Shown: piece after piece, positions 47,293 through 63,248 of the stretch | Position numbering within the stretch: the stretch's first letter is position 1 | Layout of the letters: every line of letters begins with the position of its first letter | Source of the DNA: Ignavibacteriales bacterium | GTDB taxonomy: Bacteria; Bacteroidota; Ignavibacteria; UBA10030; UBA6906 | Direction: 5' to 3' | Length of the DNA: 64,000 nt | Assembly (NCBI GenBank): GCA_037441705.1 | Contig: JBBIRR010000021.1 | Location: forward strand, 1 to 64,000 | Notes under the pieces: generated by a model | What the model saw: only the letters and a program-made list of their open reading frames with translations | Told to the model about the DNA's origin: nothing | The model's database searches: none | Position numbers and translations under genes: made by a program

Positions 47293-47369
47293 CGTGTTAG
47301 CGCGTATGAAATCCCGGAGAATTTGGAATGGAGATCAAAACAACGCGATCACGTTTTCACATATCGAGC

Positions 47370-50300
47370 ATGAGATACCTCCTCTGTATTCTCCTGTACT
47401 CCTCGCTGCATGCACAGCAGGTTGATCTGCTTCGCCAAACGCAGGCCGAGGCTGACCGCAAGAGCAAAGGATGCCTCACGTGTCACGGCGGCATCGAGCC
47501 GATGCACAAAAATCCCGCGGTGAAACTCGGCTGCACCGATTGCCACGGCGGCAATGCCGACGCGTTAGCCAAAGAGGCTGCACATGTGAAGCCCCGCTTT
47601 CCTGGCCGATGGAAATCCGCGGCGAATCCCCAACGGTCGTACACGCTGCTTAATGACGAGTACCCCGAGTTCGTGCAGTTCGTGAACCCGGGAGACTTGC
47701 GTGCTGCGGAGAAGGCCTGCGGGCCATGCCACAACCAGCCGGCAGACCCGATTGTGCGCAACGTGAAGAAGAGCATGATGACCACCTCTGCGCTGCTGTG
47801 GGGCGGCGCGGCATACAACAACGGCATCCTGCCGGTGAAGCAGTATATCCTCGGTGAAAGCTATAGTTGGGACGGCAAGCCGCAGAAAATCAACACCGTT
47901 CCCATCCCAACGAAAGAAGAGATGGACAAAAAGGGTGCGCTGCCGTTTCTGGTGCCTTTGCCGCGATGGGAGATAACGCAACCGCCCGACAACTTCCGCA
48001 GCTTCGAACGAGGCGGAAAAGTTTCACGCATCAATCCGTCGGAGATCGGCATCCCGAATCCGTTCGAGGAGCCGGGCCGGCCTGACAACAAGCTGAGCGA
48101 TCGCGGTCCGGGAACGCAACTGCGCATCAGCTCGCCCGTGCTGAACATTCACAAGACTCGCTTGAACGACCCGCATCTCTCGTTCCTCGGCACGAATGAT
48201 CATCCGGGGGATTATCGCTCGAGCGGATGCACGGCCTGTCATGTCGTATACGCGAATGATCGCTCGCCGTTCAATGCCGGACCGTACGCGCGCTACGGCA
48301 ATCGCGGCTACTCCTTCAGCGCCGATACGACGATTCCGAAGAACGAACCGGGGCATCCCATCAAACATCAATTCACACGCTCGATCCCTTCCAGCCAGTG
48401 CATGAGCTGCCACATGCATCAGCCGAATGCCTTCGTCAATACCTATCTCGGTTATCAAATGTGGGATTACGAGACCGACGGCGATCTGATGTATCCCAAG
48501 CAGCAGAAGTATCCGTCAAACGCCGAAGCGTTCGAGATGCTGATGAAGAATCCGGAGGAAGCCGTGCTGCGCGGACACTGGAGTGACGATGAGTTTCTCG
48601 CGGACGTCAGCAAACTCAATCCTCAACTCTCTCACACTCAGTTCTCGGATTATCATGGGCACGGGTGGGTCTTCCGCGCCGTTTTCAAGCGTAACCGTAA
48701 GGGCAATCTTTTGGACAAAGACGGCAATATCATTCCCGAAAACTCTCCCTTCAAGTTCGACGGCGTCGTTCCCGTCGAAGGCCTTACGCCAAAGGTGCTC
48801 TCGCCCGAAAGTCAACGCTCGCAGAAGGCCGTGCATCTCAAGGACATTCATCTCGAAAAGGGGATGCAGTGTGTTGATTGCCACTTCAAGCAGGACGCGC
48901 ACGGTAACGGCACGTTGGTAGGGGAGTTTCACAATGCCGTTGAGATTCAGTGCGTGGATTGTCACGGCACCGTCAATGCCAAGGCAACGCTGCGTACATC
49001 GGGTGTTGCTGCGCCGACGGGCGGGACAGATTTGACGACCATGTTCACCCCGTTTGGCGAGCGGCGGTTCAGGAGATCGGCAGGAAAAATCCTCCAGCGC
49101 TCCTCGCTTGTTGATACGCTGCAGTGGGAAATTCTTCAGACCGTTGACACGCATACCCGCGGATCGCGAGGCTACAACGCGAGAGCAGAGGCCGCACACC
49201 TGATGCTGAAAGATGGAACGATCGGGACGCCGGGCGTCAGCGACGATATGCTCGCCCATTCGTACAAGAAAATGGAATGCCAGAGCTGCCACACGTCGTG
49301 GATCACGAATTGCTTCGGCTGTCATCTGCCCCAACAGGCAAACTGGAAGAAGCAGATGAATCATTACGAGGGAGAGGTTTCGCGAAACTGGACGACGTAC
49401 AATCCGCAGGTCCTGCGCGATGACGGCTACATGCTCGGCATGACGGGCACAACGAAGGGAAACAAGATCACGACGGTTCGCTCATCGAGTGCGCTCGTGC
49501 TCAGTTCTCGAAACGCCAACCGGGAACAGATCTATATTCAGCAGGCTCCCATTTCAACGCCGGGGTTCAGCAGTCAGGCATTCAACCCGCATTTTGCGCA
49601 TACCGTTCGCTCGAAAGAAACACGATGGTGCACGGATTGCCACGTCTCCGCAAAGAATGACAACAACGCGTGGATGGCCCAACTGCTTCTGCAAGGAACA
49701 AATTTTGTCAACTTCATGGGAACGTATGTCTATGTAGCGGCGGGTGATGGAGGGGTTGCCGCCGTGCAGGTGACGGAGACCGACGAACCGCAAGCAGTCA
49801 TTGGCAGCTATCTCCACAGCATTGCGTATCCCGATTACTACAAACAACATCTGAATAACAGAAGGCAGTTGCGAACATCGTTCTCGCACGGCGGGACAGT
49901 ATTGAGCGTTCAGCTGCGCGGCGAGTATCTCTACGCTGCTTGCGGCGAGGACGGTTTCCGGGTGTACGACGTTGCGAACATTGACAACAAGGGATATTCC
50001 GAACGCATGGTCACGGCGCCGGTGTCGCCGCTCGGGCAGGATACACATGTCAAGACGCGCTACGCCACGGCGGTTGCCCTTCCCACCAACATGCCCATTG
50101 ATACGCGGCGAAGGGTTCGTCCGGAGAACCAGGAGCAAACGGTTCTGTACGAAGGGAAGTCGTACAACCTTCATCCTCTCTACAGCTACGCGTATATCAC
50201 CGATACGTTTGAGGGATTGATTTTAGTAGATGTCATGAATCTGGTTGACGGCGATCCGCGGAACAACTTTCTCGAGCGAGCAGTAACGTTCAATCCGAAC

Positions 50301-51056
50301 GGGATGCTCAACGGTGCGGTGAACCTTGTGATAGCGGGCAACTACGTGTACATCTGCTGCGACCGCGGCATCGTAGTCGTAAATGTGAGCGACCCGAAGA
50401 AGCCGCGCATCGTGGCCGACGTCGGTGCGCCGTTCATCAGGAGTCCGAAAGCCATTGCTGTTCAATTTCGCTATGCGTTTGTTGTGGATGATGAAGGGGT
50501 AAAAGTCATCGACGTCACGTTCCCGGAGATGCCAAAATTCGTCAAGAAAAGTTTTGTGGCTCTGCAAGGCGGTCGGGATATTTACGTTGCGAGAACATAC
50601 GCGTATGTTGCAGCAGGAACACAGGGCCTTGTCATCATTGATGTCGAGAATCCCGAAGCGATGAAGCTCGAGAAAGTTTTTACTGCGGACGGACAGATCA
50701 ACGATGCGCAAGGAGTGAAGGTGGCCTCGACGAACGCGAGCCTTTTCGCTTATGTTGCCGATGGCAAGAACGGCTTGCGTGTCATCCAACTCACGTCTCC
50801 GAAAACGGTGCCCGGCTATCTCGGTTTCAGTCCGAAGCCTGTTCCGCAACTCATTGCCACGAAGCCACTTAGCGGGCGCTCGCTTGCTATCTCCAAAGGT
50901 ATGGATCGTGATCGAGCAGTGGATGAGAGCGGTAATCAAGTCAGCGTTTTCGGGAGATTAGGTTCGCGACCCTTCACGCTCGCGGAGATGCAGAGGCTGT
51001 ACCTGAAAGAGGCAAAACTGTGGACGGTGACGGAGGACGGAAAAGTTGTCCGTTGA
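47370..51056 (+). CDS. Exported decaheme c-type cytochrome fused to an LVIVD-repeat beta-propeller
   Basis: Signal peptide; 10 CxxCH motifs (CLTCH, CTDCH, CGPCH, CTACH, CMSCH, CVDCH x2, CQSCH, CFGCH, CTDCH); C-terminal YAYVA...GL.IIDV..P repeats. Confidence 0.92.
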   Translation: MRYLLCILLYSSLHAQQVDLLRQTQAEADRKSKGCLTCHGGIEPMHKNPAVKLGCTDCHGGNADALAKEAAHVKPRFPGRWKSAANPQRSYTLLNDEYPEFVQFVNPGDLRAAEKACGPCHNQPADPIVRNVKKSMMTTSALLWGGAAYNNGILPVKQYILGESYSWDGKPQKINTVPIPTKEEMDKKGALPFLVPLPRWEITQPPDNFRSFERGGKVSRINPSEIGIPNPFEEPGRPDNKLSDRGPGTQLRISSPVLNIHKTRLNDPHLSFLGTNDHPGDYRSSGCTACHVVYANDRSPFNAGPYARYGNRGYSFSADTTIPKNEPGHPIKHQFTRSIPSSQCMSCHMHQPNAFVNTYLGYQMWDYETDGDLMYPKQQKYPSNAEAFEMLMKNPEEAVLRGHWSDDEFLADVSKLNPQLSHTQFSDYHGHGWVFRAVFKRNRKGNLLDKDGNIIPENSPFKFDGVVPVEGLTPKVLSPESQRSQKAVHLKDIHLEKGMQCVDCHFKQDAHGNGTLVGEFHNAVEIQCVDCHGTVNAKATLRTSGVAAPTGGTDLTTMFTPFGERRFRRSAGKILQRSSLVDTLQWEILQTVDTHTRGSRGYNARAEAAHLMLKDGTIGTPGVSDDMLAHSYKKMECQSCHTSWITNCFGCHLPQQANWKKQMNHYEGEVSRNWTTYNPQVLRDDGYMLGMTGTTKGNKITTVRSSSALVLSSRNANREQIYIQQAPISTPGFSSQAFNPHFAHTVRSKETRWCTDCHVSAKNDNNAWMAQLLLQGTNFVNFMGTYVYVAAGDGGVAAVQVTETDEPQAVIGSYLHSIAYPDYYKQHLNNRRQLRTSFSHGGTVLSVQLRGEYLYAACGEDGFRVYDVANIDNKGYSERMVTAPVSPLGQDTHVKTRYATAVALPTNMPIDTRRRVRPENQEQTVLYEGKSYNLHPLYSYAYITDTFEGLILVDVMNLVDGDPRNNFLERAVTFNPNGMLNGAVNLVIAGNYVYICCDRGIVVVNVSDPKKPRIVADVGAPFIRSPKAIAVQFRYAFVVDDEGVKVIDVTFPEMPKFVKKSFVALQGGRDIYVARTYAYVAAGTQGLVIIDVENPEAMKLEKVFTADGQINDAQGVKVASTNASLFAYVADGKNGLRVIQLTSPKTVPGYLGFSPKPVPQLIATKPLSGRSLAISKGMDRDRAVDESGNQVSVFGRLGSRPFTLAEMQRLYLKEAKLWTVTEDGKVVR

Positions 51057-51126: not shown

Positions 51127-52152
51127 GTGAGCGATTGCGCCGATTCAAAACTCGTTCTTCGTCATTTCGTGTTCGTGTTTGCTGTTCTGCTTGCAGGCCT
51201 TGCGAGGGACGCCGCGTATGCACAAACGCGCTATCAAACGATCGGCCCGAGCGGCTGTGGCGTGGGACAGAACAACTGCCACGCTTCGGAGAACAGGAAC
51301 ATGGTGGACAAACACAAGAACTCGGTTGATGACATCGCCGACAACGAAGATGCTCGAAAGTACGCCGATCTTTCGGGCATCGGCGCGGGGAACTATCTCA
51401 AGGGAACCTCTCGCTGCATGGAGTGTCACGGCACCATCATTTCCGGGAAGGAAGGAAAGGAAGTTGAAGAAGGCGTGAGCTGCGAAAGCTGTCACGGTCC
51501 CGGCAGCGCATACAAAGATGCTCACGCTGAAGGTCCCAAAGGCGCGCCCGGCACAATTCGTCCCGGATACACGAAATCTCTTCCGCTTGGGTTGCTCGAT
51601 CTCAAGAGCCCTGATGTGCTCGCACAAGCCTGCGTTCGCTGTCATGTCATCACCGATCAGAAAATCCTCGCCGCGGGTCACCCCGATGGGGTGAAGTTCA
51701 ACTACAAGTCGGGAATGAAATCCGTGGCAAAGCACTGGAAGTATCGCGACGCGGGAAGCATTCCGGAGCAAGCCGTGTTCAAAGCAGCAGCTGCGCGCAA
51801 GGGGCCGACCGGCGTCACCGCGAAAATGCCGAAACCCGCTGTCCAGCCGCAGGCCGCCGTGGAGAAGCCCGCGCCCGCACAAGCACGCGCGCCTAAAGCA
51901 GAAGCGCTTACCCCCGAACCTAAGCCTGCGACCACCGTTGCCGTCGAGGACAGTCCACCGCGTGTGCCTGTCCGCAGACCGCCTCCTCCGCCGAAGCCCG
52001 CACCGGTGGACGCAACTGCTCCGCCGCCGGCTGCAGTCACACCCATCGAGCTGCCTCCGTTTCCGGAAGTTACCGACAGTACACGCATTGATCGGCTGCT
52101 GCTTCTGCTCAAGCAGCGGTTGGAGTTGTTGTATAAGAAGACAGGTAATTAG
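51127..52152 (+). CDS. Cytochrome c554-like multiheme protein (3 CxxCH + 1 CX6CH) with Pro/Ala-rich tail
   Basis: Signal peptide; GPSGCGVGQNNCH, CMECH, EGVSCESCHGPGS, CVRCH; AAGHP motif; GTG start. Confidence 0.85.
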   Translation: MSDCADSKLVLRHFVFVFAVLLAGLARDAAYAQTRYQTIGPSGCGVGQNNCHASENRNMVDKHKNSVDDIADNEDARKYADLSGIGAGNYLKGTSRCMECHGTIISGKEGKEVEEGVSCESCHGPGSAYKDAHAEGPKGAPGTIRPGYTKSLPLGLLDLKSPDVLAQACVRCHVITDQKILAAGHPDGVKFNYKSGMKSVAKHWKYRDAGSIPEQAVFKAAAARKGPTGVTAKMPKPAVQPQAAVEKPAPAQARAPKAEALTPEPKPATTVAVEDSPPRVPVRRPPPPPKPAPVDATAPPPAAVTPIELPPFPEVTDSTRIDRLLLLLKQRLELLYKKTGN

Positions 52153-52158
52153 CGCCCC

Positions 52159-53781
52159 ATGCCTCTCGGTCAGACACAACTGAAGCGTCTCGAACAGTAC
52201 AAAGACCGCTGGACGTCGTACGGTGCAAACACCGGCATCCTCGAGCTTTCGGAAAAGCCGACGCCTGATTTGCTGAAGCAGTTCGACATCTTCAAAGAGT
52301 ACGACGACAAGTTTCTTGAAAGGATTTCTCCTGACATTTCCATTGCTCTTTGGAAATCAGGCACCGTGCTGTTTGAAGAAGGAAGCTACATTGATCTCGC
52401 CTTTTACATCGTCTCGGGCAGTGTTGACGTGTACTTGCAGAAGCAGCAGGCACCGCAGCCGATTTTTGCGCGTGCACGAACGCAAGTCTTCACCGGGCCG
52501 GAAACAGGCCCGCGCAAGGATGCTTCAGGAGAACAACGCGCCGTGAAGCGAACCGGACAGCCGACCACGAGCGTGAAAGCGATAACGTTTCTCGCATCCA
52601 TGGATTTCGATTTGCCGACAGGAACGACTCTCACGTTGAAGGCTGGAGATGTCTTTGGCGAGATCGGCGCGCTCAACGGCTGGCCGCAATCGGCGACGGC
52701 AAAGACAACCTCTACCTGTCAGCTCATACAAATCCGCACCGCCGCCTTGCGCATGATGCGGAAGCGTTCGGCGGGGCTGAAAGCGCGGTTGGACAGATTG
52801 TACAAAGAACGAACGCTCACCGCGCAGCTTCGCACGACTCCTTTCTTTCGTGGCCTGCGTGACGAATTTCTTCAGGCACTGGCTCAGAAGGTGGAACTTG
52901 TCTCCTGCGAACCTGGGGAAGTGATCACCAACGAAGGCGCCACGGCAGATGCCCTGTATCTCGTCCGTTCGGGATTTGTCAAACTTTCACAGCGTCTCGC
53001 CGAAGGAAACATTGTCGTTTCTTATCTTCCCAAAGGAAGCCTCTTTGGCGAAGCTGAACTACTCCTGGACGGTGGAGGGAAGTGGATGTTCACCGCCTCA
53101 TCGCAGGAGTACTCGGAGTTGGTAAGGATTTCGCGAGAGGATTTTCGCAGCGTGCTGGCTCAGCAGCCGGAAATCGAGCCGCTGCTGTGGGAGTCGGTTG
53201 CGGCAAGGATCAAAGAGTCCGGCTACAGCCGCCGCAACATCAGCCAATCCGACTTTATCTCACAGGCACTCGACAACGGACTGGTCGAGGGCAACAGCAT
53301 TCTGGTGATCGATCTGAACGTCTGCACGCGCTGCGATGATTGCGTGCGCGGCTGTTCCGATACCCACGGCGGCATTCCCCGGTTTGTTCGTGAGGGAAAC
53401 AGAATCGGCAACTTCCTCGTTGCCCGCGCGTGCTATCACTGCGCCGATCCCGTGTGCCTCATCGGATGCCCGACGGGAGCCATTCGCAGAACCGATGTGG
53501 GTGATGTTGTGGCGATCGAAGATTCGCTGTGCATCGGCTGCTCGTCGTGCGCCAACAACTGCCCGTACGATGCCATCGTGATGCACGAGACCGGCGAGGT
53601 GTGGCCCGCCGACATGATTCCGGAAGGCTTGCGCGGCAAGGAACGCCTGCTGGCTTCTAAATGCGATCTGTGTTACACCGACCCGGCAGGCCCCGCGTGC
53701 GTGCGGAGCTGTCCTCACGGATGCGCCATCCGCGTCGGTGATGTGCAGGAGTTCAAAAATCTTTTGTGGAAAGAAGTCTGA
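52159..53781 (+). CDS. Two cNMP-binding-type domains fused to a 4x[4Fe-4S] DmsB/NrfC-type ferredoxin (cytoplasmic)
   Basis: LFEEG...GDVFGEIGAL and ITNEG...GSLFGEAEL; CTRCDDCVRGC, CYHCADPVCLIGCP, CIGCSSCANNCP, KCDLC...PACVRSCP. Confidence 0.92.
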   Translation: MPLGQTQLKRLEQYKDRWTSYGANTGILELSEKPTPDLLKQFDIFKEYDDKFLERISPDISIALWKSGTVLFEEGSYIDLAFYIVSGSVDVYLQKQQAPQPIFARARTQVFTGPETGPRKDASGEQRAVKRTGQPTTSVKAITFLASMDFDLPTGTTLTLKAGDVFGEIGALNGWPQSATAKTTSTCQLIQIRTAALRMMRKRSAGLKARLDRLYKERTLTAQLRTTPFFRGLRDEFLQALAQKVELVSCEPGEVITNEGATADALYLVRSGFVKLSQRLAEGNIVVSYLPKGSLFGEAELLLDGGGKWMFTASSQEYSELVRISREDFRSVLAQQPEIEPLLWESVAARIKESGYSRRNISQSDFISQALDNGLVEGNSILVIDLNVCTRCDDCVRGCSDTHGGIPRFVREGNRIGNFLVARACYHCADPVCLIGCPTGAIRRTDVGDVVAIEDSLCIGCSSCANNCPYDAIVMHETGEVWPADMIPEGLRGKERLLASKCDLCYTDPAGPACVRSCPHGCAIRVGDVQEFKNLLWKEV

Positions 53782-54617
53782 TGCACAAGCTCGCGCACAC
53801 ACTTCGGCTGCAGCGGTTCGTCCGCTCGCCCGACTGGGCGGCGTGGTTCCTTCTGGCGACGTCAGTGTTTCTGCTCATGTATGCCGTCAATGTCATTCTG
53901 TTCGATGTCAATCCGGGAAATTGGTGGGGACTGACGTACGGATGGATTGCCGCGCTGCTCATGTTCGGTGCGGGACTCTACGGCGTGCGGCGACGCGTCC
54001 TGAACCGCGACTTCGGCAATTCGAAAGTGTGGGTAGAGTTTCACGTTTACGGCGGCACGCTCGCCGCGCTGCTGGTGCTGCTGCACACCGGCTTCAGACT
54101 GCCCAACGGCCTGTTCAACTGGCTCCTGTGGCTTCTGGCTGTGTGGGTAACAGTAAGCGGGTTGCTTGGTGTCATTCTGCAGCGATGGATTCCGAAGCTG
54201 TTGACATCGGGCCTTTCCGTCGAAGCAGTCTATGAACGGATTCCTGATTTGGTTCTTGAGCTGCGTGAACGAGCGGAGAAACTCGTGCGAACCTGTGCGG
54301 CTCCGGTGCGGGACTTCTATCAGGGTACCGTTGCCGCAGCGCTCGTCCAGCCCGAACCGCGGCTCATCTACTATCTGGATGTAACTGGAGGAGTCCAGTC
54401 CCGCATTCGGAAGTTCGAATTCCTTCGGCGCGTTCTGCCCGATGAGGAAAAGAAACGACTCGATGAGCTTCAGCTCATCTACAAAACAAAACTCGAATTG
54501 GACGCTCACTATTCATTGCAGCGAGCGCTCCGTTGGTGGCTCTACTCACATGTGCCGCTGTCAATGGTGCTGCTTCTGATGATTCTCCTGCATATATGGG
54601 CTGTGTGGTATTACTGA
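53781..54617 (+). CDS. Integral membrane protein with four TM histidines (putative di-heme b cytochrome, ferric-reductase-like)
   Basis: TGATG overlap; WVEFHVYGG...LVLLHTGF and WWLYSHVPLS...ILLHIWAV, His pairs 13 residues apart in two TM helices. Confidence 0.75.
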   Translation: MHKLAHTLRLQRFVRSPDWAAWFLLATSVFLLMYAVNVILFDVNPGNWWGLTYGWIAALLMFGAGLYGVRRRVLNRDFGNSKVWVEFHVYGGTLAALLVLLHTGFRLPNGLFNWLLWLLAVWVTVSGLLGVILQRWIPKLLTSGLSVEAVYERIPDLVLELRERAEKLVRTCAAPVRDFYQGTVAAALVQPEPRLIYYLDVTGGVQSRIRKFEFLRRVLPDEEKKRLDELQLIYKTKLELDAHYSLQRALRWWLYSHVPLSMVLLLMILLHIWAVWYY

Positions 54618-54650: not shown

Positions 54651-56246
54651 ATGGCTAAAGCAGACAATGGAACCGGCAGGAAGGGAACCTTCAGCGACGC
54701 GCGCATGAGCGTGGCCCGAAGGTACATCCGCCCGCTGACGCGCAAGCAGATGGTGATGATTGGAGGGATTGGCTGCGCGATCGTTGCTTTGTATTACATG
54801 GTAGATTCGTTCGCCCTCGGCAATACGTTCATCTCCAGCGGCAACGTTTCGTCGAATCACGCCAACTTCGAAAGCGATTGCGTGAAGTGTCATCGTCCAT
54901 TTCGTGGGACACTCGATGCGCAGTGCTCAACCTGTCATGAGAAGACGAAAGATCGGTTAGGTGTGTACAGCTTCGCTGCGCATTACGTGTACAGGTCGGA
55001 AGATCCCGCACGCATCCAGCCTGCTCGTTCGCGCTATGGTTCGACCGAGCAGCAATGTGCCTCGTGCCATCCCGATCATCGGGGCCGGCACGCTGCGATA
55101 ACGGAAGTGCCCGATGGACGATGCGCGTCCTGCCACTACCGATCCTTCACCGGCGACCACCCGGAGTTCGCCTTTGCGCGAACGCTTGCGCCCGATGACT
55201 CGACGTTGAAGATGACGCATGTGAAGCATACGAAGGAAGTGCTGAAGAAACTCAACACCACCAACATCGAGTCGGCGTGCCTGTACTGTCACAATGCCGA
55301 TAAGCAGGGCAAGGGTTTTCTGCCGCTGGATTACGACAGGCATTGCGGCGACTGCCATCTGACCACCTCATCGGAAACGCCCTCGCTTGCTATCAAGGAT
55401 CCGGCAAGCGATGCCAGTCCGGGTGTTGAAACACTCGAGATGATTCAACGCCGCAGGGGACCCGGCACGCTCTGGGCGTTTTACACCAATCCGAACGAAT
55501 TCAACGTAAGCGGCAACCGTGTGCGGAAATCTCCCGTGTATCATCGTGATCCGTGGATTCTCGAAAACCTGAAACAACTGCGACGCTCGTTGTTTGCCGA
55601 TACGACACTCGCCGACCTTCTTAATACTATCGCGGCCGATGGGCGAACGGATACCCGCCGCATGTATCGCGATGCGATTGCAATGTTGCAGCAATATGCT
55701 CTCGGGCTTCGATCGCGGCCCGAGCCTGAAATTCAGGCCGAGCTGCTGCGCATCGACTCATTGCTGAAGGTCGCGCAACAGCGATTGAGCGACGGCGGAA
55801 CGCTGCCCGATCTTCTGCCGGCGCTCACGCGGGGCGCTGCGAATCCCGGCCTCACCGATGCACAGCGACAGGCAATCGAAGACTTTGCGCTCAGACTGAG
55901 CAAGCCGTGTCTCGAATGTCACGAAGTGTCGGGCGCAGCAATTGTAGCGGTGAAGGCAAGTCAGCGCACGTTGCTTCGCGCCGAGTTTGACCATCGGGCA
56001 CACATCACGCAGCGCCGATGCCTGGAGTGCCACGATGCCATCCCCGTTGCAGAAGCGCTTGCAGGTGACACGTCCGGCGTGGCGCTGCTCGACAGAGCAT
56101 CGACGAACAATATCCCCAAGAAAGAAAACTGCATGCAGTGTCACTCGCCGACGCAAGCCTCGAGCAGTTGTGTGACGTGCCACTACATGCATCCGAACAA
56201 GGAGAATCGCGGCAACCTGCAACTGTTTGTCGAGAGGAAGCAATGA
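54651..56246 (+). CDS. Membrane-anchored decaheme c-type cytochrome (cytochrome c3/c7-like motifs)
   Basis: N-terminal TM helix; 10 CxxCH motifs (CVKCH, CSTCH, CASCH x2, CLYCH, CGDCH, CLECH x2, CMQCH, CVTCH); MTHVKH and FDHRAH distal-His motifs. Confidence 0.92.
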   Translation: MAKADNGTGRKGTFSDARMSVARRYIRPLTRKQMVMIGGIGCAIVALYYMVDSFALGNTFISSGNVSSNHANFESDCVKCHRPFRGTLDAQCSTCHEKTKDRLGVYSFAAHYVYRSEDPARIQPARSRYGSTEQQCASCHPDHRGRHAAITEVPDGRCASCHYRSFTGDHPEFAFARTLAPDDSTLKMTHVKHTKEVLKKLNTTNIESACLYCHNADKQGKGFLPLDYDRHCGDCHLTTSSETPSLAIKDPASDASPGVETLEMIQRRRGPGTLWAFYTNPNEFNVSGNRVRKSPVYHRDPWILENLKQLRRSLFADTTLADLLNTIAADGRTDTRRMYRDAIAMLQQYALGLRSRPEPEIQAELLRIDSLLKVAQQRLSDGGTLPDLLPALTRGAANPGLTDAQRQAIEDFALRLSKPCLECHEVSGAAIVAVKASQRTLLRAEFDHRAHITQRRCLECHDAIPVAEALAGDTSGVALLDRASTNNIPKKENCMQCHSPTQASSSCVTCHYMHPNKENRGNLQLFVERKQ

Positions 56247-57142
56247 CGGCACGTTTGTTCTGCAAGACAGGTCAACTTGCCGGAGCCAGCTTCGAGTTCA
56301 CCAAAGAGGCGACGATCGGGAAGCAACCCGGAAACACGATACAACTTTATCCGGCACTCATCTCGGGCAGGCATGCACGCATTTTCTTCGATGAGAAGGA
56401 GAATGCCTACTTCATAGAAGATTTGAACAGCCGCAACGGAACCAAGGTGGATGGGATGCGGGTGAGTGGGAAAGAGCGGCTCGGAAAGCTGCATGTTATC
56501 ACGTTTGCCAACACATTTGATTTTTTCTTTCAAGTTCTCGACGCGCCGGTTCGTGCCGATGCAGAGCCGACGATCTCGAAGAAGCCGGTGCAACAAGACG
56601 AACAGAAAGCCAAGCCGGCAGCGCCACGTGCAGAGCCGCAGGCAGCTCCTGCGACCCGTTCACAAACCATTTATGACGATGGGGGCATCTTTGCTCCGGG
56701 CCTCCTCGACGAGCAGGCGGCACCCTCTCCGTCATCGGACGATAAGCAGCGGACGAAAGTGGGGGTAGACATAACACCGGTACCGTCGTTCGTCGAGCCT
56801 TCAAAGCCGCCGAAGTCAGTACAAGATGGTGAAGCTGCAGGCGCATTTGTTCTTGTGTTCGAGTCGCTGCAAGGCAAACCACAGGCGTTCGATCTCAAGG
56901 AGGGAATAACTGTTGTTGGAAGAGAGGCGGGATGTACGATAGTAGTTGAAGATCCTTCCGTGTCCCGCAGACACGCCGAGCTTGTGCTCAAAGGAGGCAG
57001 ACTGACGATCAAAGATCTCGGCAGCAAGAATCATACGTACATTGACGAGCAGCGCATCGCGAAAGAGGTTGAAGTGACCGAGGGACGGGCAATAACGTTC
57101 GGCCTGGTGCGAGCGCGTTTGGTGCGGAAGCCAATACGGTAG
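56243..57142 (+). CDS. Double FHA-domain protein with low-complexity linker
   Basis: ATGA overlap; IGK...ISGRHARI...DLNSRNGT and VGR...VSRRHAEL...DLGSKNHT. Confidence 0.9.
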   Translation: MTARLFCKTGQLAGASFEFTKEATIGKQPGNTIQLYPALISGRHARIFFDEKENAYFIEDLNSRNGTKVDGMRVSGKERLGKLHVITFANTFDFFFQVLDAPVRADAEPTISKKPVQQDEQKAKPAAPRAEPQAAPATRSQTIYDDGGIFAPGLLDEQAAPSPSSDDKQRTKVGVDITPVPSFVEPSKPPKSVQDGEAAGAFVLVFESLQGKPQAFDLKEGITVVGREAGCTIVVEDPSVSRRHAELVLKGGRLTIKDLGSKNHTYIDEQRIAKEVEVTEGRAITFGLVRARLVRKPIR

Positions 57143-57252: not shown

Positions 57253-59538
57253 ATGTCCATTAGTGAATTTGCATACGAGCCTGACGGCACGCTTGTGCTG
57301 AGGAAGGCGGTGCGACTGCCGGACGTGCTCGACCTGTTAGTTGTCGGTGCTGGACCTGCAGGAACCGCCGCGGCATTTCGCGCGGTGGAGTTGGGATTGA
57401 GCGTGCTTGTGATTGACTACGATGACATCCTCAAGCGCATCCGAGACTATCCCAAGGACAAACTCATCCTTCCGGACTTCGGTGGCGGCGACCAGATGCG
57501 CTTTCCTAAAGGAGGCAAGCTCATCTCATCCCTTCATTTCTCTCCCATAGATAAGGATGAGTTGGTTGCTTCCTGGAAGCAGTTGTATGTCGAGAACAAT
57601 GTGCCGGCCAAAATTGGTGTCGAGCTTCTCAGCATCACGCGCAGCAACGGCATGTGGGAGGTGAAAGTGTGGAACTACAACGTCAGGGACGAGTACTTGC
57701 TTCGCGCACAACACATTGCCATCGGCATTGGCCGAGGAGTGCCCCGGCGCTTCGACATTCCCGGCAACACAGATGGCATCGCGTACCGTCTTGCCGATCC
57801 GCAAGCGTACGTCAACGGACCTGCGCTCGTTATCGGCGGTGGAACATCGGCAGCCGAGGCAGTCATTGCCATCTCGAACGCGAAAGCAAAAGCCGCCGAT
57901 CGCTCGGCTGTATACTGGTCCTATCGCGGCGAGAAGCTGCCGAAAGTCTCCAAGGCCCTTGCCGACGTGTTCTTCGAAGCCTACATCGGCAACGGCAATA
58001 TCCGTTACTTCCCGAACAGCGAGCCGGTTGCCGTCATTAGCGGCGACGATAGTCGGGATTATCTTTCGGTTCGAGTTGACCGAAAGACGATTGCCGGTCG
58101 CCCGAATGAGACGCAGCATCTTGAGTTTCCCAAAGAATCCTGCATCGCGTGCATCGGCGAAGACATCCCTGAAGCATTTCTCAACTCGCTCGGCATCACG
58201 ATGGTGACGGGTGGCCCGGCGCGCAAAAAGCGCATGTGTGTGACGCGGTTGCTCGAAACACAGCAACCCAACGTCTACCTCATCGGCGACATTTTGAGTC
58301 AGGCGTACTTAGAAACCGATGACTTCGCCGCCGATCCGGCCACGTTCCGCGAAGTGAAACATCGCGGTAACATCAAAGCAGGATTGATTGACGGCGTTCT
58401 CGTCGCCGAAGTCGTAGCCCAGCGTCTTGCCGGAAAAACGGAGATTGATGTGAAGGTAGAGTTTGAAGAGGCTGCAGGCGTCAGCGAACCGCCGAAGCCT
58501 GCAAGTCCACTTGCAACGATCTTCTCCAGTCTTCCACCTCCTGCGGAAAAGGAAGCAGCACCGCGCCGCGCCGTGCTTGTGCGTGTACTTGCCGGCGGCG
58601 TAGAAGAGGACGAATATCCCGTTGCCCTTCACGGCAGCGTTACCATCGGCAGGAAATTCTGCGACATCGTCTTTCCGGACGATACGCTCCTTTCCGAAAA
58701 GCATGCTGCGGTTACCTATGGGCCCGACGGATTCACGCTGCGCGACGAAGGGAGCCAGAACGGCGTGTTTCTTCGACTTGTGGAAGGGAAACCCAGAGAG
58801 GTGACAAACGGCGATCTCGTGCGTGCCGGTCGTCAATTTCTTCTCTTTCGTGTTGAGAACGGCGAGAGCGCCATGCTTCATTACGACCGCACAGGAAAGC
58901 GAGTCAACTCCTATCCTCTTTTCTCGGGAAAGACAGTTGTAGTTGGTCGGGAAGCTCCAGATATTACACTCGACACATCGGACATGACGCTTTCGCGCAG
59001 ACATCTTGCCGTATCCGTAAAAGAAGGAGCGATCTTGGTCAAAGATCTCAAGAGCGTGAACGGTACGTATCTCAAAGTGCGCAACGTCGTTTCCCTTGAG
59101 CCGGGCGACGTGTTCCGGGTGGGCAGTCAGGCATTCAAGCTCCAGTGGGTGGAGGAGGGACCGGCGAGTTTACGCGTAAGCACGAAACCTCCTTCGGCTC
59201 CGAAGCCTGTTTCGCCAAAGCCAGCGCCGGAAGTCCCGAAGGCGGCAGCGATGACGGTGACGTTCAAGAACGTCGGCAAAACTGTTGCATTCGATGCGGG
59301 ACAAACGATCTGCGCTATTGCGGAGAAGAACGGTATCAAGATCGTTGCCGAGTGCCACGCGGGGATTTGCGGAAGCGATCCGATTCGGGTAATTTCCGGT
59401 AGAGAGTGTCTCGGCCCCATCAGCGATGAGGAGAAGGGGACACTCGAAGACATCTGTGGGCATGTTGCCGGAGAATACCGGCTGGCCTGCATGGCAAAAC
59501 CAAGCGCTCCTGTTGAAGTGGAGATTCTCAGCTCGTGA
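57253..59538 (+). CDS. FAD/NAD(P)H oxidoreductase (thioredoxin-reductase/YpdA-like) fused to two FHA domains and a C-terminal [2Fe-2S] ferredoxin
   Basis: VVGAGPAG, VIGGGTSAAE, WSYRG, ETQQPNVYLIGD; FHA IGR..SEKH..SQNG and VGR..SRRH..SVNGT; ECHAGICGSD...RLAC. Confidence 0.88.
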   Translation: MSISEFAYEPDGTLVLRKAVRLPDVLDLLVVGAGPAGTAAAFRAVELGLSVLVIDYDDILKRIRDYPKDKLILPDFGGGDQMRFPKGGKLISSLHFSPIDKDELVASWKQLYVENNVPAKIGVELLSITRSNGMWEVKVWNYNVRDEYLLRAQHIAIGIGRGVPRRFDIPGNTDGIAYRLADPQAYVNGPALVIGGGTSAAEAVIAISNAKAKAADRSAVYWSYRGEKLPKVSKALADVFFEAYIGNGNIRYFPNSEPVAVISGDDSRDYLSVRVDRKTIAGRPNETQHLEFPKESCIACIGEDIPEAFLNSLGITMVTGGPARKKRMCVTRLLETQQPNVYLIGDILSQAYLETDDFAADPATFREVKHRGNIKAGLIDGVLVAEVVAQRLAGKTEIDVKVEFEEAAGVSEPPKPASPLATIFSSLPPPAEKEAAPRRAVLVRVLAGGVEEDEYPVALHGSVTIGRKFCDIVFPDDTLLSEKHAAVTYGPDGFTLRDEGSQNGVFLRLVEGKPREVTNGDLVRAGRQFLLFRVENGESAMLHYDRTGKRVNSYPLFSGKTVVVGREAPDITLDTSDMTLSRRHLAVSVKEGAILVKDLKSVNGTYLKVRNVVSLEPGDVFRVGSQAFKLQWVEEGPASLRVSTKPPSAPKPVSPKPAPEVPKAAAMTVTFKNVGKTVAFDAGQTICAIAEKNGIKIVAECHAGICGSDPIRVISGRECLGPISDEEKGTLEDICGHVAGEYRLACMAKPSAPVEVEILSS

Positions 59539-60317
59539 GAACATTAACCTACGCCGGCAAAACCGATATTGGAAGAGTGCGTGATGAGAATCAGGATGCG
59601 ATGGGGAAATTTCCCAGCGACTCGCTCGATCTCGACACACCCAAAGGCCAGCTCTTGATTGTTGCGGATGGGATGGGCGGACACGCGGGCGGTCGAGAAG
59701 CGAGCCGTCTTGCTGTCGAAACGATTGCGCGGGTCTATTTCGCGTCCGATATGCCGGTCGCCGAAAGCCTGAAACGCTCATTCAAGGAAGCGAACAAGGC
59801 GATCTACGACTACAGCGTCAACAATCCGCAGTATTACGGGATGGGCACAACGTGCATCGCTCTTGTGCTGCAAAACGCCGCAGCATACGCCGCGCACATA
59901 GGCGACAGCCGCCTGTACCATATCAATGGCCACAGCATCAAGCAATTGACGCGCGATCACTCGAAAGTGGCAGAGATGGTTCGTCGCGGCATGCTCACTC
60001 CCGAAGAGGCACGGTGGCACCCCGAGCGCTCTATGCTCTACCGTGCCATGGGAGTAGTTCTCAATGTGGAGTTCGATTTTCTCAACGGCATCGTGTTGGG
60101 GTCCGACGATTACCTCGTGCAATGCACCGACGGCCTCACCGCATACGTGGAGCCTGAAGAACTCCGTGAGGTTGTTGTGAGCAACTCGCCGCAAGAAGCC
60201 TGCGACGTGCTGGTGGACCTTGCCAACAGCCGCGGCGGACACGACAACATCACCGTGCAGATCGCCCACGTGCGGGGCGGAAACGGATTCCTGAAAACGT
60301 TCTTGCGCTCTCGATAG
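59535..60317 (+). CDS. PP2C-family Ser/Thr protein phosphatase (Stp1/PrpC-like)
   Basis: GTGA overlap; TDIGRVRDENQD, VADGMGGHAGG, HIGDSRLY, CTDGL, GGHDNITV. Confidence 0.95.
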   Translation: MRTLTYAGKTDIGRVRDENQDAMGKFPSDSLDLDTPKGQLLIVADGMGGHAGGREASRLAVETIARVYFASDMPVAESLKRSFKEANKAIYDYSVNNPQYYGMGTTCIALVLQNAAAYAAHIGDSRLYHINGHSIKQLTRDHSKVAEMVRRGMLTPEEARWHPERSMLYRAMGVVLNVEFDFLNGIVLGSDDYLVQCTDGLTAYVEPEELREVVVSNSPQEACDVLVDLANSRGGHDNITVQIAHVRGGNGFLKTFLRSR

Positions 60318-60320
60318 GTC

Positions 60321-62123
60321 ATGCAATCAATCATCGGCAAAGTTGTTGACACATACGAGATCACCGGCATTCTCGGCAAGGGAGGCATGGGCGTTGTGTA
60401 CAAAGCGAAGGACATGACGCTCGATCGGGACGTGGCGCTGAAAATGATGGACGCCAATCTTGCGCGCGATGAGGAGTTCCTCAAGCGATTCAAATCCGAA
60501 GCGAAAGCGCTCGCGAAGCTGCAGAATCGCAACATCGTCAGCGTCTTTGCACTGCGGGAGACGGAGTTGGGCCTGGCGCTTGTGATGGAGTTTGTTGACG
60601 GCACGACGCTGGCGGATCAGCTTCGCCTGCAGGGCCCGATTCCGCTGGCGCGCACAATGCATATCTTCAAGCAAATCCTCGGCGCACTGGGCGACGCGCA
60701 TCGCAATAACGTCATCCATCGAGACATCAAGCCGAGCAACGTGATGTTGACGAAAGACGATGTCGTGAAGGTGACGGACTTCGGGCTTGCCAAGATTCAG
60801 CAGGTCTCCGGCGCTACCGTGACGATGGGAACGGGCGGCACTTTGTATTACATGTCACCTGAGCAGATCCGCGGGCTTGCCAATGTTGATCAACGCGGCG
60901 ATATCTACTCGATCGGCATGACGCTCTACGAGACGGTGACCGGACGTGTGCCCTTCGGAAATGATCTGACCGATTTCGACATCCGGCAGATGATTGTGGA
61001 AGGAAAAATTCCGCCGCCCGAGCGATTCAATGCCGCGCTTCCGAAGGAGCTTGTGCAGGTCATCGTGAAATCCATCCACAAAGATCCCAACAAGCGTTTC
61101 CAGTCATGCGAAGAAATGTCCGCTGCCCTCGGGGCGATTGAACTGAAGCCGGAAGATGGCGAGGTCAAACGGGCGACCGTCGAGCCCCCGCCGCGCCTGC
61201 CCAAGTACAAACCGCGCCCGTCGCCGAAGCGGCCACTTTTTGTGACGCTCGGGGCAGGAGTCGTTCTGATTGCCGGTTTGTTCATTGCTCGTTCGTACCT
61301 CTTTCCGCCAACGGGTATGCTGAGCATCGATTCCGACCCGCCCGGCTCAACGATTTCGGTTAACGGAAACGCTGCAGGCGTAACACCGTTGGAAAACATC
61401 TCGCTCGCCGCAGGCAAGATTGTGGTTGAAGTTGACAAAGAAGGGTATTATCGGAAGGACACGACTCTTTCCCTCGACGCGGGGCAGAACGTTTCCCTGC
61501 TTATCACTCTTACAAAACTTCCGACGCAAACCGCCGCACAGCGGGAGGAGACAGCGGCGGGCAGCGAGCAGAAACAGGCCGTTCAGCAGCCGATCTCTGA
61601 GCGAAGAACCGAGAATGTAACCACCGTGCCGGCGGAGCGAAAACCAGCTCCGGCTACCCGCGGCGAAACGGCTGCTCCTGCGCGCGCCGCGCTTGTGCTG
61701 CGTGCGGTGCCGTCAGGCTCCGTCGTTGTGGACGGCGGACCAAGAACAAATCTCGGTTCGTCGGCCTCAAGCGTCGAGGTTGCTCCGGGTCAACGGACGA
61801 TCATCTTTGAACATCCGACCTACGGCAGCAAACGGATCAACGTCACATTGCAGCCGGGCGAACAAAGACAGCTCACGTGTTATTTCGAAACGTATCTCAG
61901 CGTAGCCACGACGGGCGATGCAGCGTGGGGACTGCTTGTGATTGATGGGAAAGCGACGGATGTGCAAACCCCCATTGATGGCTATCCCCTGGGGCCGGGC
62001 CGACATCGGATTTCCGTGAGCAAGATGGGCTATGAAACGGTGGAAGGCGAGAAGGTCGTGGTCGTCGAGCCGACGTTCGAGCGACGCGTCGAGCGCCTGT
62101 CCTTTACACTCAAACGAAAATAA
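60321..62123 (+). CDS. Hanks-type Ser/Thr kinase with TM helix and periplasmic PEGA domains
   Basis: LGKGGMGVVY, VALK, HRDIKPSN, DFGLAK, GTLYYMSPEQ; TM LFVTLGAGVVLIAGLFIA; PEGA SDPPGSTISVNG..GVTP. Confidence 0.95.
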   Translation: MQSIIGKVVDTYEITGILGKGGMGVVYKAKDMTLDRDVALKMMDANLARDEEFLKRFKSEAKALAKLQNRNIVSVFALRETELGLALVMEFVDGTTLADQLRLQGPIPLARTMHIFKQILGALGDAHRNNVIHRDIKPSNVMLTKDDVVKVTDFGLAKIQQVSGATVTMGTGGTLYYMSPEQIRGLANVDQRGDIYSIGMTLYETVTGRVPFGNDLTDFDIRQMIVEGKIPPPERFNAALPKELVQVIVKSIHKDPNKRFQSCEEMSAALGAIELKPEDGEVKRATVEPPPRLPKYKPRPSPKRPLFVTLGAGVVLIAGLFIARSYLFPPTGMLSIDSDPPGSTISVNGNAAGVTPLENISLAAGKIVVEVDKEGYYRKDTTLSLDAGQNVSLLITLTKLPTQTAAQREETAAGSEQKQAVQQPISERRTENVTTVPAERKPAPATRGETAAPARAALVLRAVPSGSVVVDGGPRTNLGSSASSVEVAPGQRTIIFEHPTYGSKRINVTLQPGEQRQLTCYFETYLSVATTGDAAWGLLVIDGKATDVQTPIDGYPLGPGRHRISVSKMGYETVEGEKVVVVEPTFERRVERLSFTLKRK

Positions 62124-62167: not shown

Positions 62168-63193
62168 ATGATTCGCGAAACGTTTTTGAAGGCAGGAATC
62201 AGCGTGATTCTGGTAATGCTTGCTGGAGGTAGCAGCGTTGCGCTTGCACAGTCGGACGCACACACGAAGTGGGAAGAAGCACAGAAGTTCTACAACTCCG
62301 CCAACTTCGACAAGGCAATTGAGCTGCTTCAGCCTCTTGCCGACGATAAGTCCCTTGACAAGAGCGCCCGGAAGAACGTCCTGCTGGCATTGGGACGCGC
62401 CCACATTGCCAAGGGCAACAAGAAAGGCGCACTGACGGCAATGCAGAAGTTGTTAGAGGTCGAGCCTCCGGTGATTGAACTCGACCCGGACGCCGAGTGC
62501 CCGCCGCTGATGAAGGTGTACTACGAAGCTCGGAAGGCGAAGTCCGGAACGACACAGGTGGAACGTCCCGACCCCGGCATTCGGACGATCGCTATACTCG
62601 ACTTCAAGAATCGCTCGGTCGATGACAAAGAAAAGTATGACCCGTTGGAGAAAGGTTTTGCCGAGTTGATGATTGATCAGCTCAACGGCGCCGTGGATTT
62701 GAAAGTGATCGAGCGAGAGCGTATCCAATGGATTCTCGAAGAGATTGGATTGGAGAATGATCCTTCCAAGTTCGATCAATCGTCCGCCGTCCGGGTGGGT
62801 AAGCAGCTTGGTGTGCATACGATCCTGCTGGGAAGTTTCATCAAAGTGAAAGATAAGATGAAGCTTCTTGCTCGATTGGTAAAGGTCGAGACGAGCGAGA
62901 TTCTCGCAACGGAGCAGGCCGAAGGAGACGCCGATGAGTTTTTCGAGGTTGCCGAGAACCTCAGCCTGAAGGTGGCAAAGAAGATCAACGCGGCATTGAC
63001 CAAAGCCGATGTGGAGAAAAACACCGAGACAAAGTCGCTTGATGCAATGATGTCGTATTCGGAAGGGTTGGTGTTGTTAGAGAAGGGGAATTACAAGGAC
63101 GCGTACGACAAGTTCATGCGTGCGCTGGAAATCGATCCGAATTACAACAAGGCACGCACGAAAGCCGAAAGCCTGAGGCCGCTGCTCGGATAG
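62168..63193 (+). CDS. Exported TPR + CsgG/HfaB (TolB-N-like) domain protein
   Basis: Signal peptide; N- and C-terminal TPRs; TIAILDFKN...LKVIERERIQWILEE...SAVRVGKQLGV...GSF...ARLVKVETSEIL. Confidence 0.85.
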   Translation: MIRETFLKAGISVILVMLAGGSSVALAQSDAHTKWEEAQKFYNSANFDKAIELLQPLADDKSLDKSARKNVLLALGRAHIAKGNKKGALTAMQKLLEVEPPVIELDPDAECPPLMKVYYEARKAKSGTTQVERPDPGIRTIAILDFKNRSVDDKEKYDPLEKGFAELMIDQLNGAVDLKVIERERIQWILEEIGLENDPSKFDQSSAVRVGKQLGVHTILLGSFIKVKDKMKLLARLVKVETSEILATEQAEGDADEFFEVAENLSLKVAKKINAALTKADVEKNTETKSLDAMMSYSEGLVLLEKGNYKDAYDKFMRALEIDPNYNKARTKAESLRPLLG

Positions 63194-63248
63194 CAGCACA
63201 ACGCGCGCTGTGCGCGTTCATTGTTTATCAATCAACGCTGGAGAATCT

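Follow-up and report, generated by a model that had tools for sequence, protein, structure and literature searches.

What might a bacterium do with a single polypeptide built from an NAD(P)H flavoprotein, two FHA domains, and a ferredoxin domain in which an aspartate stands where a cluster cysteine is expected? The question is raised by the gene at 57253..59538 (+ strand) of a 64,000-nucleotide stretch of an Ignavibacteriales genome (contig JBBIRR010000021.1 of assembly GCA_037441705.1, positions 1 to 64,000), hereafter the window. A prediction made from the sequence alone (the original prediction) had described the product as a flavoprotein-FHA-FHA-[2Fe-2S] fusion, and had proposed that the Asp ligates the cluster and shifts its potential while phosphothreonine binding controls intramolecular electron transfer or partner docking. 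We found that the gene belongs to a real family of so far undescribed enzymes, which join known kinds of domain, and that the Asp is conserved throughout it. The role we favor, with about even chances of being right, is that of a phospho-gated module that lets electrons from NAD(P)H enter a multihaem conduit resembling the one encoded by the ptd operon.

The open reading frame (ORF) is intact, both in the ORF list and on direct reading of the sequence, and encodes 761 amino acids in a domain order that Pfam bore out. Pyr_redox_2 matches residues 27-348 (61.1 bits), accompanied by Pyr_redox_3, and the flavin domain as a whole spans residues ~27-395 (57331..58437). A linker rich in Pro, Ala, Ser, and Thr (linker 1, 58465..58563) leads to FHA1 (residues ~438-544, 58564..58884) and FHA2 (residues ~550-643, 58900..59181). 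The Pfam FHA family scores 83.5 bits over two stretches, the best at residues 463-526 and the second at ~553-631, where Yop-YscD_cpl also matches. The Fer2 (PF00111) domain closes the protein (residues ~667-758, 59251..59526), with its Pfam match at residues 673-750. The full-length AlphaFold2 (AF2) model, built with 65 homologues as input, has a mean predicted local distance difference test (pLDDT) of 85.4 and a predicted template modeling score (pTM) of 0.61. Its low-confidence parts are the two linkers (410-434, with pLDDT < 50 at 410-420 and 424-434, and 648-664) and the cluster loop (702-705, pLDDT < 50).

The family was followed through homologues and through metagenomes. The 120 best homologues share 54-99% identity with the query; 119 are close to full length and one has 645 amino acids, and their sources label the metagenome-assembled genomes as Ignavibacteria, Bacteroidota, KSB1, and Rhodothermales. 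Column counts over 120 rows, as given below, come from a full-length alignment of the query and 119 homologues. A 65-row alignment (A1) was also used for a metagenome scan, which gave 159 confirmed stretches; 80 loci were analyzed, and the Fer2 domain was present in 66 of these. Our search of the literature found no description of an FHA and [2Fe-2S] oxidoreductase fusion, or of an FHA/thioredoxin-reductase-type/ferredoxin protein of Ignavibacteria.

The cluster motif runs C701-x4-C706-G-S-D709-P...C746 (C-HAGI-C-GS-D...RLAC), and the codons are as had been claimed: Cys701 is TGC at 59353-59355, Cys706 is TGC at 59368-59370, Cys746 is TGC at 59488-59490, and the residue at the third cluster-cysteine position, Asp709, is GAT at 59377..59379. 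The motif C-x4-C-G-x-D is read by all 120 best homologues, with Cys at positions 701, 706, and 746 and Asp at position 709 in 120/120 rows each; the same set is invariant in A1 (65/65 rows) and in the 66 of 66 metagenome loci where the domain was found. The gene is also covered from end to end by a contig of an independent study, at 53 differences in 2286 letters (an overall count, the Asp codon itself not being read there); to judge by its length alone, this may be the longest contig listed for homologue P0001, which reads CHAGICGSD. A sequencing error as the source of the Asp is ruled out, because the residue is conserved family-wide and the independent contig covers the gene. The C-x4-C-x2-C...C pattern of plant-type ferredoxins is broken family-wide at its third cysteine, and Asp709 is, in these alignments, a conserved family signature.

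Searches of Protein Data Bank chains, with phmmer and with a profile, placed D709 opposite the third Cys ligand in 10/10 of the alignments shown, each to a solved chain of the ferredoxin type. The top ranks went to plant-type and FeSII-type [2Fe-2S] ferredoxins, the first five alignments being to 9i2a, 5ffi, 9iey, 5ogx, and 1fxi. The closest solved sequences to the Fer2 domain are FeSII of Azotobacter (Shethna protein II; 5ffi, 9iey, 9cu1) and "Ferredoxin-4" (9i2a), with profile matches at E 1e-7 to 2e-5 and a shared G-x-E-N-L...E...L-E pattern after the cluster loop; both differ from the domain studied here in being stand-alone proteins with a Cys at the third ligand position. The AF2 model has strands at residues 668-671 and 676-679, a helix at 686-692, the cluster loop at 701-709, a strand at 710-715, a helix at 725-733, and strands at 742-744 and 754-758. 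The C-terminal domain is predicted to be of the beta-grasp ferredoxin type, in the order strand-strand-helix-strand-helix-strand-strand.

The Asp extends well beyond this one architecture. A profile of the Fer2 domain, searched against 1.84 billion cluster representatives, matched 661 proteins at E ≤ 0.001, and among the 156 domains of the best 150 of these the third ligand position is Asp in 146, Cys in 7, and a gap in 3. After the three cysteines, Asp709-Pro710 is the best conserved feature of these 156 domains, and by this comparison the Asp marks a Fer2 subfamily of its own, with the motif C-x2-G-x-C-G-x-D-P. The counts within the family and in this subfamily support the proposal that an Asp at the third ligand position is a selected feature.

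We scanned 71 of these D-type proteins with Pfam (all 43 remaining matches of at least 300 amino acids and 28 selected earlier), and FHA was present in 46 of them. A second architecture begins with a polytopic, Cys-rich membrane domain, continues with one to three D-type Fer2 domains, and ends in a Pyr_redox_2/Rubredoxin_C reductase (for example P0220, P0206, P0223, P0243, P0251, P0227, P0146, and P0121). Its membrane domain carries the motifs W-C-x3-C-P and H-C-x-P-C-V-G-C-x-K-N-C (C-x2-C-x2-C-x3-C); a Fer4_5 match there is below threshold in one of three proteins (E 0.041, 14.3 bits against 22) and is a lead only. Of the 21 second-architecture proteins scanned, five also carry FHA, once or twice, at either end of the chain. 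The best argument for the D-type domain as an electron relay comes from these natural fusions, because they flank the domain with an NAD(P)H flavoprotein on one side and a membrane redox domain on the other. FHA also occurs with D-type Fer2 where there is no flavin domain (P0124, P0129, and many matches of 350-560 amino acids), FHA-FHA-Fer2 forms among them. Stand-alone proteins of ~93 amino acids mix Cys and Asp forms in one clade (FastTree, 95 columns, no support values). An unexpected link to TIR was seen in P0199 (637 amino acids), which holds FHA, TIR_2, and a D-type Fer2 domain (CWIGMCGCDPIR) in one protein.

To treat the Asp as unusual in itself, as the original prediction did, was an overstatement, since Cys3Asp clusters are already a known kind. 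The K-12 record of E. coli SdhB reads CREGVCGSD, which BLASTP aligned with CHAGICGSD here (E 6e-4 in a single comparison, 42 residues), and in the crystal structure Asp63 of SdhB is a ligand of its [2Fe-2S] cluster. The fourth ligand of SdhB lies 11 residues past the Asp, whereas the conserved fourth Cys here lies 36 residues past it, as in plant-type ferredoxins. SdhB is moreover a complex II subunit of another domain family and has no FHA; Pfam assigns the domain here to Fer2 rather than to an SdhB-type family, and no 4Fe-4S or 3Fe-4S domain follows it. In the [2Fe-2S] subunit NfnA/SudB of Pyrococcus/Thermotoga NfnI, the cluster has, according to a review, an Asp(Cys)3 ligand set and a potential of +80 mV, which is unusually high (PMC8097209), and a kinetics paper describes its Asp as toggling between bidentate and monodentate binding (PMC10724689). 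NfnA is PyrK-like, from a different domain family and enzyme, and likewise lacks FHA. Among the reports that we searched, there was no described example of a PF00111-type domain with a Cys3Asp set conserved across hundreds of proteins.

Phosphothreonine binding was part of the original prediction, and the binding residues support it for one of the two FHA domains. FHA2 has a complete set of binding residues (G565, R566, S581, R582, H584, S601, N603, and G604, each 120/120), and genes for a PP2C phosphatase and a kinase follow the flavoprotein gene in the window, which makes the role plausible. FHA1 is degenerate: G466 is kept in 120/120 rows, H484 in 118/120, S481 in 112/120, and R467 in 92/120, and its Asn is poorly kept, as noted below. 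Because one set is complete and the other degenerate, the protein probably has a single canonical phosphothreonine reader, FHA2, to judge from these column counts, and FHA1 may serve as a scaffold. Linker 1 holds a Thr-containing motif of the LATIF or KTSIVE type that is semi-conserved in the alignment. A linker Thr as the FHA ligand was considered and set aside as too weak on this conservation, and a phospho-acceptor role for it is speculation.

The flavin domain was said to resemble YpdA or thioredoxin reductase (TrxR)-type ferredoxin-NADP reductases (FNRs), and the best Foldseek matches agree. Bdr/YpdA came first (7a76, E 1.1e-21, target template modeling score 0.60; then 7a7b), followed by the TrxR-type FNRs 6gar, 3ab1, 3lzw, 2zbw, and 6gas, and then by thioredoxin reductases. 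The domain is, according to its model, a two-dinucleotide-binding TrxR/YpdA fold. Its FAD motif V-G-[GA]-G-P-A-G (31-37) and NAD(P)H motif G-G-G-T-S-A (195-200) vary little or not at all over the 120 rows, and R225 and G345-D346 are further conserved motif residues. The TrxR-type FNRs of B. cereus (FNR1/FNR2; 6gar, 6gas), Chlorobaculum tepidum (3ab1), B. subtilis (YumC, 3lzw), and T. thermophilus (2zbw) share the fold at E 1e-17 to 1e-20, have the FAD and NAD(P)H motifs, and have no redox CxxC in the NADPH domain. They pair with a separate [2Fe-2S] or [4Fe-4S] ferredoxin or a flavodoxin; here, at 16-19% identity, the ferredoxin is fused in cis, is of the Asp type, and is set apart by two FHA domains. 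Bdr (bacillithiol disulfide reductase, 7a76/7a7b), which has neither FHA nor an Fe-S domain, is the best sequence match (phmmer E 3.3e-7).

A catalytic Cys lies in the first GxGxxG motif of YpdA. The first dinucleotide motif is GGGPCG in B. cereus Bdr (7a76) and GAGPAG here, and position 36 is Ala in 104 rows, Gly in 14, Val in 1, and Thr in 1, never Cys. The best NCBIfam match of the domain is TIGR04018, at 58.9 bits against a cut-off of 339.9. The flavin domain is not a YpdA, because this match is far below the cut-off and the GAGPAG motif lacks the Cys.

The absence of a CxxC from the flavin domain, as first claimed, is literally wrong but probably right in substance. The only cysteines of the domain in the query are C297, C300, and C329, and the first two form its sole C-x2-C, C297-I-A-C300 (58141..58152), with Cys in 108/120 rows at position 297 (Ala 9, Thr 2, Ser 1) and in 119/120 at position 300. 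The redox CxxC of TrxR sits just before the second GGG motif, where the query has no Cys; C297-I-A-C300 lies at a predicted strand (297-299) near the domain hinge. C297 and C300 are probably structural rather than a redox disulfide, though a metal or disulfide role is possible. Paralogues of the flavin domain were also seen in relatives, with 30-37% identity over residues 23-318 in frames of 420-1059 amino acids (for example G007:C44:14861-15652 and G021:C204:22332-23123).

The flavoprotein gene stands in a run of redox genes, all on the + strand. A 1242-residue decahaem cytochrome with LVIVD repeats (47328..51056; Pfam, 10 CxxCH) is followed by a c554-like multihaem cytochrome (51127..52152; Cytochrome_C554, 3 CxxCH) and by a protein with three cyclic-nucleotide (cNMP)-binding stretches and two 4Fe-4S motifs according to Pfam (52159..53781; cNMP_binding 107.4 bits, Fer4 families), hereafter cNMP-Fer4. 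A 283-residue, ferric-reductase-like membrane protein, a putative dihaem b protein (53766..54617), precedes a membrane-anchored decahaem cytochrome c (54651..56246; Cytochrome_C7/c3, 10 CxxCH) and an FHA-FHA protein (56243..57142, with a longer ORF that starts at 56138; FHA 122.2 bits over two stretches). Downstream, the start of a PP2C phosphatase gene (59535..60317; PP2C_2/PP2C) overlaps the stop of the flavoprotein ORF, and a Ser/Thr kinase with a PEGA domain follows (60321..62123; Pkinase 175.5 bits, PEGA 83.3 bits). The cNMP-Fer4 gene runs 16 bases into the start of the gene for the membrane protein, an arrangement that suggests coupled translation as well as a second, cyclic-nucleotide input on the conduit. 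The ferric-reductase-like assignment draws on the two H-x13-H pairs of the membrane protein (the first three His in 7/7 rows, the fourth in 6/6 rows reaching that far, L017 being short) and on its nearest ESM-Atlas clusters (0.96, 0.95), whose automatic name, "ferric reductase like transmembrane component", is a lead and no proof.

Loci of six relatives (54-85% identity per gene) keep the core of membrane protein, cytochrome c, FHA-FHA protein, and flavoprotein in synteny in 6/6, with identical gene order in 5/6 and the decahaem gene displaced in one. The FHA-FHA gene is directly upstream in 6/6, cNMP-Fer4 and the c554-like gene are each present in 6/6, and the LVIVD decahaem gene is present in 4/6 (in the other two the flank was too short or held no match). 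PP2C, the kinase, and two TPR/CsgG genes lie downstream in 5/6, one locus being without all four. Neighbors in the metagenomes were counted by tblastn with the window proteins over loci with enough flank, a count that divergent genes may escape. The FHA-FHA gene is upstream in 50/58 loci (at least 1.2 kb upstream), the decahaem cytochrome in 40/46 (at least 3 kb), and the ferric-reductase-like membrane gene in 36/43 (at least 4 kb).

The metagenome counts are lower for other neighbors: cNMP-Fer4 is upstream in only 22/36 loci (at least 5.8 kb) and lies downstream in some, where the order is permuted, PP2C is downstream in only 8/51 (at least 1 kb), and the kinase is downstream in 14/38 (at least 3 kb). 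Because of the last two counts, the adjacent kinase and phosphatase are, over the loci compared, a trait of this lineage. The tie to the cytochrome/membrane core is general.

Further genes of the region were noted in passing. Two tandem lipoprotein-like TPR and CsgG-like genes (62168-63193 and 63210-63998) are the ones found downstream of the kinase in 5/6 relatives' loci. The 584-residue ORF at 45405-47159 had no Pfam or NCBIfam match. With its signal-like start and its final residues TFTY, the product resembles an outer-membrane barrel and may serve as the conduit porin, and a homologue of it adjoins the LVIVD cytochrome in several metagenome loci. Upstream of it, 43876-45477 encodes a lipoprotein with two HbpS-like haem-degrading-type domains. 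In seven metagenome loci (L036, L038, L043, L046, L051, L052, and L056), which form one group of more distant homologues, the porin-like, LVIVD, c554-like, and cNMP-Fer4 genes lie downstream of the flavoprotein gene, not upstream.

This neighborhood resembles the operon ptdABCDEFG, which our literature search found described in one preprint only (Elbon, Stewart, Glass; bioRxiv 10.1101/2023.11.21.568154) and whose function the authors call "completely unknown". The genes listed there include a small multihaem cytochrome, a cNMP-binding 2x[4Fe-4S] protein (PtdE), a ferric-reductase-like protein (PtdF), a decahaem cytochrome (PtdG), an FAD/NAD(P) oxidoreductase (PtdC), and a porin. Going by these descriptions of domains, the ptd E-F-G core matches the cluster here in domain content and order. 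PtdC is described there as flavohaemoprotein-like, whereas the NAD(P)H enzyme here has the TrxR fold with FHA-FHA-Fer2. The pentahaem PtdA is replaced by the LVIVD decahaem protein, no pentahaem protein being found at the locus, and the porin PtdB may have its counterpart in the porin-like ORF, which ends in an aromatic residue. Compared with ptd, the cluster here adds the FHA-FHA protein and, in this lineage, also PP2C, the kinase, and the TPR/CsgG-like lipoproteins; the preprint text makes no mention of FHA.

In the electron-entry role that we favor, the protein would be a cytoplasmic Fe-S flavoenzyme in which NAD(P)H reduces FAD in a TrxR-fold domain that does without the thiol chemistry of YpdA or TrxR. 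The FAD would pass electrons to the tethered C-terminal plant-type [2Fe-2S] domain of the same protein, whose cluster would have Cys701, Cys706, Cys746, and the Asp709 carboxylate as its ligands. The comparison with other Asp(Cys)3 clusters makes it probable that the Asp raises the cluster potential, and the flow from NAD(P)H to a haem acceptor would therefore be downhill. The Fer2 domain could then pass electrons one at a time to cNMP-Fer4, to the dihaem-b membrane protein, or to both, and from there to periplasmic multihaem cytochromes c. Binding of phosphothreonine by FHA2 would fix or free the ferredoxin domain and so decide its shuttling between flavin and acceptor, and the phosphothreonine might be supplied by the FHA-FHA protein, a linker, or a conduit subunit. 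What the analysis shows is the domain architecture, the conserved ligand set and FHA2 site, the relationships of fold, and the synteny; cluster binding, Asp ligation, a shifted potential, and phospho-gating are what we infer, as are the direction of flow and the link to the conduit.

The internal electron step was also approached by docking residues 665-761 (Fer2) onto residues 1-400 (flavin domain), FAD and 2Fe-2S being carried along. The score of 0.33, against 0.12 for the best of three controls, gives weak support. Runs agreed in at least 96% of contacts and the partner pLDDT was at least 84. The docking mark is passed by 116/157 solved complexes and 2/215 mismatched pairs, but at scores of 0.60 or below by only 18/157 solved complexes and by both passing mismatches.

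Several points weigh against the electron-entry role, the weak docking score among them: by the caveat of the docking tool itself, such a result is more often wrong than right unless the pairing is likely beforehand. The Fer2 match is barely over threshold (25.3 bits, cut-off 21), and an Asp at the third ligand position of a PF00111-type domain has no solved example, the residue being Cys in 10/10 aligned solved chains. A shift of potential does not always follow from Asp ligation, whose effect in the P. furiosus [4Fe-4S] ferredoxin is moderate (PMC8097209). FHA1 lacks a conserved Asn (N503, 33/120). The likeness to ptd is one of domain descriptions, and the low metagenome counts for cNMP-Fer4, PP2C, and the kinase count on the same side. 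The membrane protein at 53766-54617 had no significant Pfam or NCBIfam match, what points to a ferric reductase is the spacing of its His residues and its language-model features, and its AF2 model, from a 7-row alignment, is poor (mean pLDDT 62.6, pTM 0.48) and supports nothing.

The alternative that survives best, which we still regard as unlikely, is a redox, oxygen, or NO sensor. An Asp-ligated cluster that is labile or switches conformation would be poised by the NAD(P)H/FAD domain and would alter FHA binding, either to report the cytoplasmic redox state to a kinase/phosphatase circuit or to recruit partners as the redox state dictates. The [2Fe-2S] protein FeSII works by redox-dependent binding and not by catalysis, and its structures (5ffi, 9iey, 9cu1) are among the closest solved relatives of the domain. 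FHA domains are recruitment modules, and they accompany D-type Fer2 also in the flavin-less forms (P0124, P0129, and the 350-560-residue matches) and in the single TIR case (P0199), although some of the short flavin-less forms may be ORFs cut at contig ends. Carboxylate ligands can switch binding mode (PMC10724689), and sensor clusters typically have non-Cys ligands, such as the Asp of NsrR (PMC5411485). Against a sensor stand the cytochrome neighbors and the repeated fusions, both with membrane redox domains and with complete NAD(P)H flavoproteins of two different folds; for all of these a relay is the simpler account.

Far less probable is that the C-terminal domain is a beta-grasp docking module without a cluster, the Asp being a mark of lost metal binding. 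The low Fer2 score and the loss of one canonical ligand would fit such a module, as would the pLDDT below 50 at residues 702-705, but low confidence in this loop is expected of a model that lacks the metal. Three Cys at the exact ligand positions, together with G704, G707, and D709, are invariant in 120 homologues and 66 loci and kept in most of the 156 domains, and cluster loss is disfavored because degenerate domains would lose such residues. SdhB, moreover, has the same C-x4-C-G-S-D motif and binds a cluster.

Less probable again is an all-Cys cluster, with C687, C719, C735, or position 742 providing the fourth ligand and Asp709 in the second sphere. C687 is invariant in the 120 close homologues, C735 is Cys in 96/120 rows, and position 742 is Cys in 61/120. 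C687 is, however, Cys in just 52/66 loci of the family, and its column in the wider D-type subfamily holds Leu in 79 of the 156 domains against Cys in 53; it lies inside the predicted helix 686-692, where plant-type ferredoxins carry a core Leu. C735 is Asn in 23/120 rows, the query itself has Tyr at position 742, and the C719 column is mostly Asn, with Cys absent from its five commonest residues. In these alignments only the three Cys and the Asp-Pro, the best kept feature after them, are universal, and no other Cys is conserved enough to act as a substitute ligand; the possibility that a nearby Cys supplies the ligand, left open in the original prediction, is thereby answered in the negative. 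A YpdA/Bdr-type low-molecular-weight-thiol disulfide reductase with added regulatory domains is the least credible of all, since the Bdr/YpdA structure and sequence matches and the TIGR04018 match that speak for it are offset by the shortfall of that match, by the missing Cys at position 36, and by a fused ferredoxin that would have no role in thiol reduction.

Control of bacterial electron-transfer chains is known mostly at the levels of transcription and substrate supply. Phosphothreonine readers built into an NAD(P)H-to-Fe-S module whose gene lies with those of a multihaem conduit would offer a testable handle on post-translational control of electron export, in a family that is large and spread over several phyla of uncultured bacteria (900 homologue matches, 159 confirmed metagenome stretches). 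The conserved Asp defines a natural Cys3Asp plant-type series with close Cys4 relatives for comparison, useful for learning how carboxylate ligation tunes the potential and stability of [2Fe-2S] clusters, and the flavoprotein is a candidate cytoplasmic electron donor for ptd-type clusters. More tentatively, and with rather less confidence than in the electron-entry role itself, we suggest that D-type Fer2 with FHA may be a widespread modular switch by which Ser/Thr phosphorylation directly gates electron entry into membrane and extracellular electron-transfer chains. What FHA2 binds would set whether the tethered, Asp-ligated ferredoxin can reach its acceptor, a conformational change at the carboxylate ligand may act as a further gate, and cyclic nucleotide on the PtdE-like Fe-S protein could be a second input to the same conduit. 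If true, this would be a new regulatory principle, a kinase-controlled, post-translational wiring of respiration-like electron flow in bacteria.

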